A stretch of 5,802 bases of DNA, from IMG/VR virus record IMGVR_UViG_2706794681_000007; one strand, 5' to 3'. Source of the stretch: a virus. Lineage: Duplodnaviria; Heunggongvirae; Uroviricota; Caudoviricetes. Of this stretch, positions 79 through 1,417 are shown one piece after another. The position numbers were made by a program, and so were the translations under genes. Every line of letters begins with the position of its first letter. Position 1 is the first letter of the stretch. The notes under the pieces were generated by a model that saw only the letters and a program-made list of their open reading frames with translations, did no database searches and had not been told where the DNA came from.

Positions 79-1326
79 TTAACTGATCGGCATTACACCA
101 CCGGGACGCGGATTCATATCTTCCAGGTCGCGGCAGTCATTGGAAGAGTAAATTCCCCAGTTGATCCCGGTGGCGTAGGCTTCAAAACGGGACTTCATAT
201 CCCCGCGCAGTAACGCCCCGGCGTTAAATTTGGCGTAATAAACGCCCTGCTTACTTTTTCGTACCAGTCCGGTGTTGATCCGCTGTTCGATGCGGGTCAG
301 ATACGGCACCAGTGAATAGTTGATAAATCCCAGCCCCAGCTCTTCGATATTGTTGAAGGTGGCGCGATCGGTGTTCTGCACCATGTGCAACGGCACCCGG
401 AACAGACGACAGATTTCTTCCAGCTGAAACTTGCGGGTTTCCAGGAACTGACTGTCCTCGGCGTTCAGCGCCATCGACTTCCAGTCCAGCCCCATTTCCA
501 GAATCATCGGGCGGTGAGCATTGCCAAGCCCCGTGTGACACTCCTCAAAATCTTTCTTCAGACGCTCGTAAGCATCCGGCGTGAGCTTTTGTTCCGTACG
601 CAACACACCGGATGTCACCGCACCATTACTAAACAACCTGGCACCGTGCTCCTCGGTTGCCGCTGCCAGTGAAATGGCCTCACGCGCATACGCAATGGGA
701 TTCAGCCCGACAAGTCCATCCAGCGTCAGGGTGCGCACATGCCAGATTTCATTCTGGGTCAACACATCCACGGAACCATCCGGAAACGTCACCTGATAAA
801 CCGGCTGCCACTGGCTGTTCAGCTTCGGTTCCACACAGCCCGGATCTATCGGAAGAAGCTCCACCACTTCTCCCAGTGCCTTTACCTTGTAGGCGTAAAA
901 ATTCCCCCGTAGACACAGGCAGACAATAACCAGCTCCCAGAATTCCTGCGGTGTCATGTAGCCATTAGGTTTTGCCGAAACCAACTTATGCAGTCGTTCA
1001 TCCACCGCCCGTGTTTTCAGGGTACCGCTGATTTTGTAGAGACTGCAGGGCAGCATACCAACAGACTCTGCCAGCACCCTGACGCAAGAATAGACCGCCG
1101 TCAGGCGCATGGCCCGCTGGCTACTGATCCGCTTTCCGGTATAGGTGTCGTATGACAGCCCGATAGCATCAGCAGTTCTGCTGGCGTGGTCACCGGCACA
1201 TCGCTTTTTCGTTGAAATAATCCCGAAAAGAACACTATTTACCTCCGCCGACAGACTGCCGTGTACGGTCGAGATATCGCGCCACCAGCCACGACCAGAA
1301 CAGGCACAGCGCCCCGGCAACAACAA
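79..1326 (-). CDS. Phage portal protein, HK97 family (start codon uncertain)
   Basis: The 415-aa translation has the conserved HK97-type portal core (e.g. [46 protein letters not shown]-like C-terminal region) and sits directly downstream of the large terminase. The track start at 1326 is a TTG with no Shine-Dalgarno and overlaps the upstream small ORF. Stop is TAA at 79-81. Confidence 0.85.
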
Positions 1327-1417
1327 AACCCGCCGGGGGATAAATCAGCCAGGCACCATACGCCAGCAAAAGCGCACCCAGCACGCCCACCAGAGGCGCG
1401 AGAATCAGCATGATCAT
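1235..1417 (-). CDS. Small hypothetical membrane protein (60 aa, two predicted TM helices) between large terminase and portal
   Basis: ATG at 1417-1415 is preceded by GAGGT (1426-1422) and lies 11 nt after the terL stop. The product [60 protein letters not shown] has two hydrophobic segments and a basic C-terminus. Its TAG stop (1237-1235) overlaps a GTG with a GGAGG Shine-Dalgarno. It could still be a spurious hydrophobic frame in a GC-rich region. Confidence 0.5.

Follow-up and report, generated by a model that had tools for sequence, protein, structure and literature searches.

A YmfR-family membrane-protein gene between the large terminase and portal genes of a decayed prophage

A stretch of 5,802 nucleotides from the IMG/VR virus record IMGVR_UViG_2706794681_000007 (Caudoviricetes), referred to as the window, was analysed at its full length with a focus on a small open reading frame (ORF) between the genes for the large terminase (terL) and the HK97-type portal protein. 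The ORF (1235..1417, minus strand) encodes 60 amino acids (aa) followed by a TAG stop, for which a small inner-membrane helical hairpin is predicted. Profile matching, identity to K-12 YmfR and substitution patterns make it very probably a genuine gene of the YmfR family of membrane proteins, and it is termed ymfR in the following. By direct reading, its ATG start is located at 1417-1415 and its stop codon at 1237-1235. The spacer that separates it from terL (CTGAGGTAATT, 1418..1428, minus strand) is 11 nt long, carries the Shine-Dalgarno (SD) sequence GAGG at 1426-1423 and is identical in the aligned sequences of SfI, ST64B, phiP27 and E. coli; in other lineages, the distance between the two genes is -7, -4 or +8 to +14 nt. 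The 3' codons of ymfR read GGC GGA GGT AAA TAG. The last G (1235) is at the same time the first base of a GTG codon (1235-1233), and the GGAGG serving as portal SD (1246-1242) is contained in the last ymfR codons. A preliminary description, made from the sequence alone, had listed the start codon 11 nt past the terL stop, its SD and the stop codon overlapping a GTG with its own GGAGG, all of which are present. The GTG is the ancestral start of the portal gene, which is broken in the window.

The encoded protein is strongly hydrophobic, with a grand average of hydropathy (GRAVY) of 1.15. Two hydrophobic segments span residues ~2-25 and 31-47, with 15-residue Kyte-Doolittle means of up to 2.7 and 2.2, respectively. 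Based on hydropathy and an AlphaFold2 model, a first transmembrane (TM) helix is predicted for residues 2-25 (1343..1414, minus strand), which contains the G11xxG14 motif, G21 and W23. It is followed by a short, uncharged turn, Y26-P-P-A-G30 (1328..1342, minus strand), that was delimited by conservation and charge and is predicted to face the periplasm. The second TM helix (residues 31-47; 1277..1327, minus strand; hydropathy and conservation) harbors G35 and a C38-L-x-W-S-W motif and ends with R47. Residues 48-60 (1238..1276, minus strand) form a variable, predicted cytoplasmic tail, delimited by its substitution rates and the SD-like motif, that includes the portal GGAGG. The K/R residues are located C-terminally to the second hydrophobic segment, and the loop has a mean K+R of 0.03. 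According to the positive-inside rule, an N-in/C-in topology with a periplasmic turn is predicted for the hairpin. The AlphaFold2 model, built from a 25-sequence alignment, places helices at residues 2-25 and 27-57 with a mean predicted local distance difference test (pLDDT) score of 74. Hydropathy, charge distribution and modeled helices hence agree with the initial assignment as a small two-TM membrane protein. The guanine-cytosine (GC) content of the ORF is modestly raised (0.61 versus 0.50-0.57 in the flanks), which could be explained by its Gly/Ala/Leu/Pro-rich coding.

Database searches, which the preliminary description had proposed together with a check for synonymous-biased substitution, assign the ORF to a known family. 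The protein matches phrog_502 ('membrane protein') in PHROGs with E=2.8e-28 over 55 of the 58 profile positions, and 58 of its 60 residues (97%) are identical to YmfR (b1150) of the cryptic prophage e14 in E. coli K-12. A homologue is named 'protein YmfR' by RefSeq (PGAP), and b1150 is labelled as an IPR020297-domain protein in its RefSeq record. In DNA searches, the terL-ymfR-portal junction was also found in the phages SfI, SfII, SfIV, ST64B (sb3) and phiP27 (L37), and in 1,608 of 5,426 complete E. coli genomes, in which RefSeq (PGAP) calls the gene ymfR. When 5.8 billion proteins were searched, 167 clusters of homologues were obtained, nearly all of exactly 60 aa and originating from Escherichia, Shigella, Salmonella, Citrobacter, Klebsiella, Enterobacter, Yersinia, Hafnia and Buttiauxella. 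In a profile search against 1.8 billion cluster representatives, 422 clusters were recovered at E<=1e-3, almost all of 45-70 aa, and phrog_502 was matched by all 35 distant members tested. No Pfam or NCBIfam model matches the protein; the sole match, to TctB (E=0.025), falls below the cutoff of that model. A sequence search of the PDB returned no relative, a Foldseek comparison of the AlphaFold2 model with viral structures returned generic helical hairpins only (none at E<=0.001), and the PADLOC defence models matched neither the window protein nor three distant members.

K-12 e14 YmfR, phiP27 L37, ST64B Sb3 and the SfI/SfII 'membrane protein' all belong to phrog_502, comprise 60 aa and occupy the terL-portal slot with a stop/start overlap. 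The window copy has the same characteristics, namely the profile match, a P-A-G hairpin of two helices within ~60 aa, the conserved G11, G14, G21, W23 and G35, and the overlapping slot. Nothing material distinguishes it from its orthologues except its neighbours, i.e. a portal gene that is frameshifted and truncated by an insertion sequence (IS). The YmfR family is therefore already known and annotated, and the window contains an ordinary member. Four family members (P0160, P0175, P0194 and P0207) consist of two tandem hairpin repeats, with ~100-120 aa and four TM segments, a hint that the hairpin acts in the form of dimers or larger oligomers.

Several database entries deviate from this picture. 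In Shigella flexneri CP182557 (3001-3216), one base is lost in the C5 run encoding P27-P28, resulting in a frameshifted allele of 71 aa that extends past the portal start. Five rare protein clusters (P0074, P0086, P0087, P0093 and P0117) likewise have 71 aa. They share 91-100% identity with the first 67-77% of the query and, judging from length and identity, may carry that allele as well. These alleles could represent decay or homopolymer sequencing errors. A 5.6-kb contig binned into a 'Bacillota bacterium' metagenome-assembled genome (JAEWTL010000102.1) is 94% identical to the enterobacterial prophage region, and the record OR844959, titled 'Enterococcus phage Efm 3-10', contains the prophage region as well. 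Both are likely binning or contamination artefacts.

To describe the genomic context of the family, 194 loci were fetched via the small protein and reduced to 114 unique variants. terL is located immediately upstream of ymfR in 109 of these variants, with the remainder lying at contig edges, and an HK97-type portal gene is found downstream in 112. The ymfR stop codon and the following start codon share one base in 103 variants (TGATG in 69, TAATG in 20 and TAGTG in 14); for 94 loci, the start was confirmed to be in the portal frame by requiring at least 280 open codons. The loci cover a GC range of 42% to 70%. In a second sample, which was seeded with the portal alone and drawn from viral contigs, an intact 60-aa ORF is present in all 79 junction-complete contigs. 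The loss or disruption of the ORF in close relatives, which had been named as an observation that would speak against it, was thus not encountered.

In a simple consensus scan, no promoter-like site adjoins the ORF; the only such site on the minus strand lies ~500 nt upstream, inside terL, the total of two promoter-like sites is not significant against an expectation of 0.6 +/- 0.9, and the minus strand of the window has no terminator-like site. In K-12, ymfR is upregulated by ~4.5 log2 together with other e14 genes under SOS conditions (PMC10012262). It is likely that ymfR is an intrinsic, late and co-translated part of the packaging module and not a moron. The preliminary description had proposed a moron, i.e. 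an inserted late-operon gene. Such a gene would have its own flanking promoter and terminator and a sporadic distribution; the scan detected no such flanking pair, and all 79 portal-seeded junctions carry ymfR. A moron would also differ from its neighbours in nucleotide composition and be expressed from the repressed prophage, on which the SOS co-induction of ymfR with e14 lytic genes (PMC10012262) bears indirectly. The near-invariant slot, the covariation with the portal described below and the induction along with other e14 genes (PMC10012262) speak against the proposal as well. Translational coupling on both sides, as originally suggested, is in contrast backed by the spacing, the SD sequences and the 1-nt overlap, which recurs in 103 of the 114 variants. 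In the SfII record (NC_021857), a 'putative rho-independent terminator' is annotated at 1892-1941 in the 5' part of the YmfR homologue, corresponding to window positions ~1409-1360. The scan found no equivalent in the window, where only a 4-bp stem is visible by eye. The annotation is doubtful, since a terminator at this site would cut off portal expression.

The selection acting on the gene was analysed for 33 loci ranging from Enterobacterales to Halomonadaceae. For the core (residues 1-47), the ratio of nonsynonymous to synonymous substitution rates (dN/dS) is 0.09-0.32 at a synonymous divergence (dS) of ~0.7-2, and column entropies of 0.72, 0.40 and 1.32 were obtained for the first, second and third codon positions. 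Across the 114 variants, the residues G11 (94%), G14 (93%), G21 (99%), W23 (99%), P28 (89%), A29 (93%), G30 (99%), G35 (100%) as well as L37 and L39 (90%) are conserved. The substitution ratio of the core, the entropy by codon position and the residue conservation identify ymfR as a functional protein gene that is neither a chance frame nor a mere spacer. The tail has a dN/dS of ~0.5-1.5 and evolves near neutrality except for the terminal GG[K/E/D]. This C-terminus coincides with the portal SD, and an SD-like motif is found there in 93 of the 114 loci.

To determine which neighbour the gene follows in evolution, pairwise identities of the small protein, the portal and the large terminase were compared for 94 loci. 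The partial correlation of the small protein with the portal given terL is 0.57, and that with terL given the portal is 0.24. In 102 pairs with a terL identity below 60% and a portal identity above 85%, the small proteins share a mean identity of 77%, compared to 87% where both neighbours are similar and 40% where both are different. Phage SfV provides the converse example. Its terL is 96% identical to that of the window over the compared DNA stretch of 291 nt until ~80 nt before the stop codon, and past that point a different portal is found together with a very divergent family member of 53 aa. This member is an unannotated phrog_502-like ORF (MKSLIADVIGLAGFGLLTCGVYLQFGMAPALILSGALLLVGALAMARRGTRAA) between terL and portal (NC_003444, 2289-2450), and is read through from the annotated portal start (2392). 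The real portal start of SfV is likely the GTG at 2440, which is preceded by AGGGGG and overlaps the small ORF by 11 nt. The YmfR copy is also unannotated in the SfIV records. Taken together, the identities suggest that ymfR belongs evolutionarily to the portal side of the module, and they hint at a functional tie to the portal. This linkage is suggestive and not a proof, because the loci are not phylogenetically independent and there is little space for recombination at an overlapping junction. A special N-terminal docking motif of the portal (MFFPGMF) was considered and dropped, as many family-associated portals begin with MAGLFG, MGIF or MIFD.

The remaining features of the window, all encoded on the minus strand unless stated otherwise, correspond to the late region of a decayed prophage. 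A lysis cassette comprises an S21-type holin (5196..4984), a lysozyme (4981..4487; Pfam Phage_lysozyme), and Rz (4499..4026) with embedded Rz1 (4267..4085). The N-terminal hydrophobic stretch of the lysozyme suggests that it is of the signal-arrest-release (SAR) type. Downstream, a run of 101 N (3642-3742) interrupts the sequence, due to which an HNH endonuclease and a P27-family small terminase are read as a single ORF of 273 aa (3159..3980). By comparison with phiP27, the N stretch should hide the 3' end of the HNH gene, the cos site and the start of the small terminase gene (terS). The terL gene (1429..3162; 577 aa) is intact, terminates with TAA at 1431-1429, matches Pfam TerL_ATPase and TerL_nuclease as well as phrog_9, and has 99% amino-acid identity to terL of SfI. 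Rfam and tRNA scans of the window returned nothing.

The portal gene is damaged at two sites. Its GTG start is considered the genuine ancestral one because relatives annotate the portal there. The portal N-terminus is not encoded across ymfR, an arrangement that had been named as evidence against the small gene. In an alignment with four relatives, the frame starting at this GTG remains open for 44 codons (1101..1235). It closes owing to the loss of one base between 1174 and 1173 compared to SfI, ST64B, phiP27 and an E. coli prophage (relatives ...GAGCTGGCGGATGC..., window ...GAACT-GCTGATGC...). The rest of the HK97-type portal follows in a shifted frame (79..1172; Pfam Phage_portal, 3e-107; TIGR01537 portal_HK97), which is the frame of the ORF 79..1326. 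The frameshift reflects either a pseudogene or a sequencing error. According to the BLAST end points, the homology to portal genes of the relatives stops near 96-114, more narrowly put at ~96-98, and in place of the portal 3' end the sequence continues with the terminus of an IS4-family element (1..114, strand not assigned) that has ~95.7% identity to IS4-like elements. Copies at this identity are found in thousands of E. coli genomes. At the opposite edge, the last 78 bases (5725-5802) are multi-copy, reaching 24 copies in a single E. coli genome, are found on chromosomes and plasmids, and probably represent another IS end. The window therefore contains a prophage fragment with mobile elements on both sides. 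terL and ymfR are intact in this decayed prophage. The survival of ymfR between damaged neighbours, here and in e14, may be due to chance given its target size of 183 nt.

In HK97 itself, terL overlaps the portal gene directly and no gene is located between them. The original statement that terS-terL-portal modules normally lack an intervening gene holds for HK97 and fails as a generalization, including for the large sister group with ymfR, given the 1,608 of 5,426 E. coli genomes with a ymfR junction and the presence of lambda W in the same slot. W (68 aa) lies between A (terL) and B (portal), overlaps both neighbours and is similar in size to YmfR. The lambda gpW protein is a soluble virion head-tail adaptor (Ad1), whereas YmfR is strongly hydrophobic with two predicted TM helices, and no BLASTP alignment between the two was obtained at E<=100. 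Four GenBank phage records (ON470584, ON470603, ON470580 and PQ793804) give the YmfR homologue the label 'head-tail joining protein W'. As there is no similarity to lambda W and a membrane protein is predicted, this label appears to be a positional mis-annotation. Another small protein to be compared is HK97 gp15, an inner-membrane superinfection-exclusion protein that is encoded among the tail genes. Morons of this type resemble YmfR in size, inner-membrane location and late-region position, but ymfR has neither their sporadic distribution nor autonomous signals, and no match to a sequence family of this kind was obtained. The S21 class II holin shares the two-TM N-in/C-in topology predicted for YmfR, which in turn has neither endolysin adjacency nor a match to a holin family. 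A further parallel concerns the proposed role only. In T4, the membrane-bound portal initiator gp20 needs the phage chaperone gp40 (PMC9958956), a phage factor that links portal assembly to the inner membrane. T4 belongs to another phage lineage, gp40 has a different genome context, and no homology is expected; YmfR would be an analogue in function.

Of the possible explanations for ymfR, a spurious hydrophobic frame or a part of the portal coding sequence has a negligible probability. Among the 64 ORFs of the window with 30 aa or more, most are meaningless, and the longest ORF in the portal frame (79..1326) overlaps the region. That overlap is an artefact of the 1-nt deletion, however, and the phrog_502 match, the purifying selection, the conserved length and the 79 intact copies in 79 junctions speak against a chance frame, a possibility that had been raised in the preliminary description. 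In another explanation, the peptide itself might matter little if the ORF merely passed ribosomes from terL to portal and thereby set the portal:terminase ratio, or, as a variant, pulled the late mRNA towards the membrane while being inserted co-translationally. Such a coupling device would agree with the 1-nt overlap in 103 and the internal portal SD in 93 of 114 cases, and with a C-terminal tail that is near-neutral apart from its SD-encoding GG codons. It is nevertheless improbable, since a mere spacer would not preserve G21, W23, G30 and G35 at 99-100% and a core dN/dS of 0.1-0.3 at saturated synonymous divergence, and HK97 couples terL to portal directly without any spacer ORF.

Two further explanations assign a role at the membrane outside of head assembly. 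A holin-, pinholin- or antiholin-like lysis protein with class II topology is very unlikely: size, two predicted TM helices, N-in/C-in orientation, a basic C-terminal tail and glycine-rich helix faces are compatible with it, and the generic hairpins from the fold search include some annotated holins, all non-significant, but neither Pfam nor PHROGs gives a holin match, ymfR is always adjacent to the portal and never to an endolysin gene, and a complete lysis cassette (4023-5196; S21-type holin, lysozyme, Rz/Rz1) is already present 3 kb away. The main rival of an assembly role, possible but less likely than not, is a late membrane factor directed at the host or at competitors. It would be carried in the late operon and act in superinfection exclusion by blocking the DNA entry of superinfecting phages, or would modulate lysis timing or the physiology of the membrane. 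In PHROGs, phrog_502 is placed in the category 'moron, auxiliary metabolic gene and host takeover', into which membrane proteins are sorted by default. YmfR is a small hydrophobic protein that is unlikely to be part of the virion, heads of the HK97 type can assemble in its absence, and HK97 gp15 is a comparable case. The gene is also intact in the window and in e14, where it lies between terminase and portal pseudogenes. Against such a factor stand the lack of nearby promoter-like and of any terminator-like sites on the coding strand in the consensus scan, the invariant position and portal coupling across loci of 42-70% GC, the co-inheritance with the portal together with its presence in all 79 portal-seeded junctions, and the absence of a PADLOC defence-family match. 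Moreover, ymfR is induced with lytic genes and was not reported as a lysogenic transcript (PMC10012262).

The best overall explanation, to which a probability of roughly 45% is assigned, is that ymfR encodes a portal-linked membrane hairpin acting as a late accessory of portal or prohead assembly. According to this model, ymfR would be expressed within the late packaging-head operon and not independently. Ribosomes terminating on terL would reinitiate on ymfR via the 11-nt spacer and its own SD, and those terminating on ymfR would reinitiate on the portal gene at the UAGUG of the window or at UGAUG or UAAUG elsewhere. Owing to the 1-nt stop/start overlap and the location of the portal SD in the last ymfR codons, translation of the portal would be physically dependent on that of ymfR. 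The large terminase, YmfR and the portal would be produced together, late, from one mRNA; as YmfR must insert co-translationally, part of this synthesis would take place at the inner membrane. The protein, probably in the form of hairpin dimers or oligomers, would then act late at the cytoplasmic membrane, where it might anchor or chaperone the nucleation of the portal ring or the packaging complex, resembling T4 gp40 in role and not in sequence. Of the parts of this model, a membrane-located accessory function in portal/prohead assembly or in the packaging complex is a tentative proposal that draws its support from context and co-inheritance, and a dedicated function of the hairpins in anchoring or chaperoning HK97-type portal rings or the terminase-portal packaging complex at the membrane is doubtful.

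A number of points weigh against an assembly accessory. HK97 and other HK97-type phages build portals without ymfR, so that the gene is no universal requirement. The 94 loci underlying the correlations are not phylogenetically independent, and the portal linkage could reflect only an overlapping junction that offers no room for a recombination joint. The promoter and terminator evidence comes from a simple consensus scan, and the intact state of ymfR in decayed prophages such as e14 and the window is also predicted by a host-beneficial function. A literature search yielded no functional study of any YmfR family member; the mentions of ymfR are confined to e14 gene lists, one SOS transcriptome and one ASKA screen, in which it was a hit of the first round and was lost in the second. 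The judgement of the preliminary description that the function is not inferable from sequence still applies.

The window copy itself is of little importance, being an ordinary, annotated family member in a decayed prophage. On a practical level, database records mislabel YmfR as lambda W or miss the gene, as is the case for SfV and SfIV. The family as a whole is a neglected puzzle: a membrane protein hard-wired between the packaging ATPase and the portal, as far as Halomonadaceae. If its role lies in exclusion or lysis timing, its conservation would be unusually deep for such a factor. If it is an assembly factor, it would indicate that heads are assembled or packaged with a membrane-associated step in phages other than the T4 group; a membrane-based prohead or packaging step has so far been documented mainly for T4 (gp20, gp40 and YidC). 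Should YmfR be a dedicated anchor, prohead nucleation or DNA packaging would occur at the inner membrane in a large clade of temperate Proteobacteria phages, and the terL-ymfR-portal translational relay would ensure co-production of the components at this membrane site.

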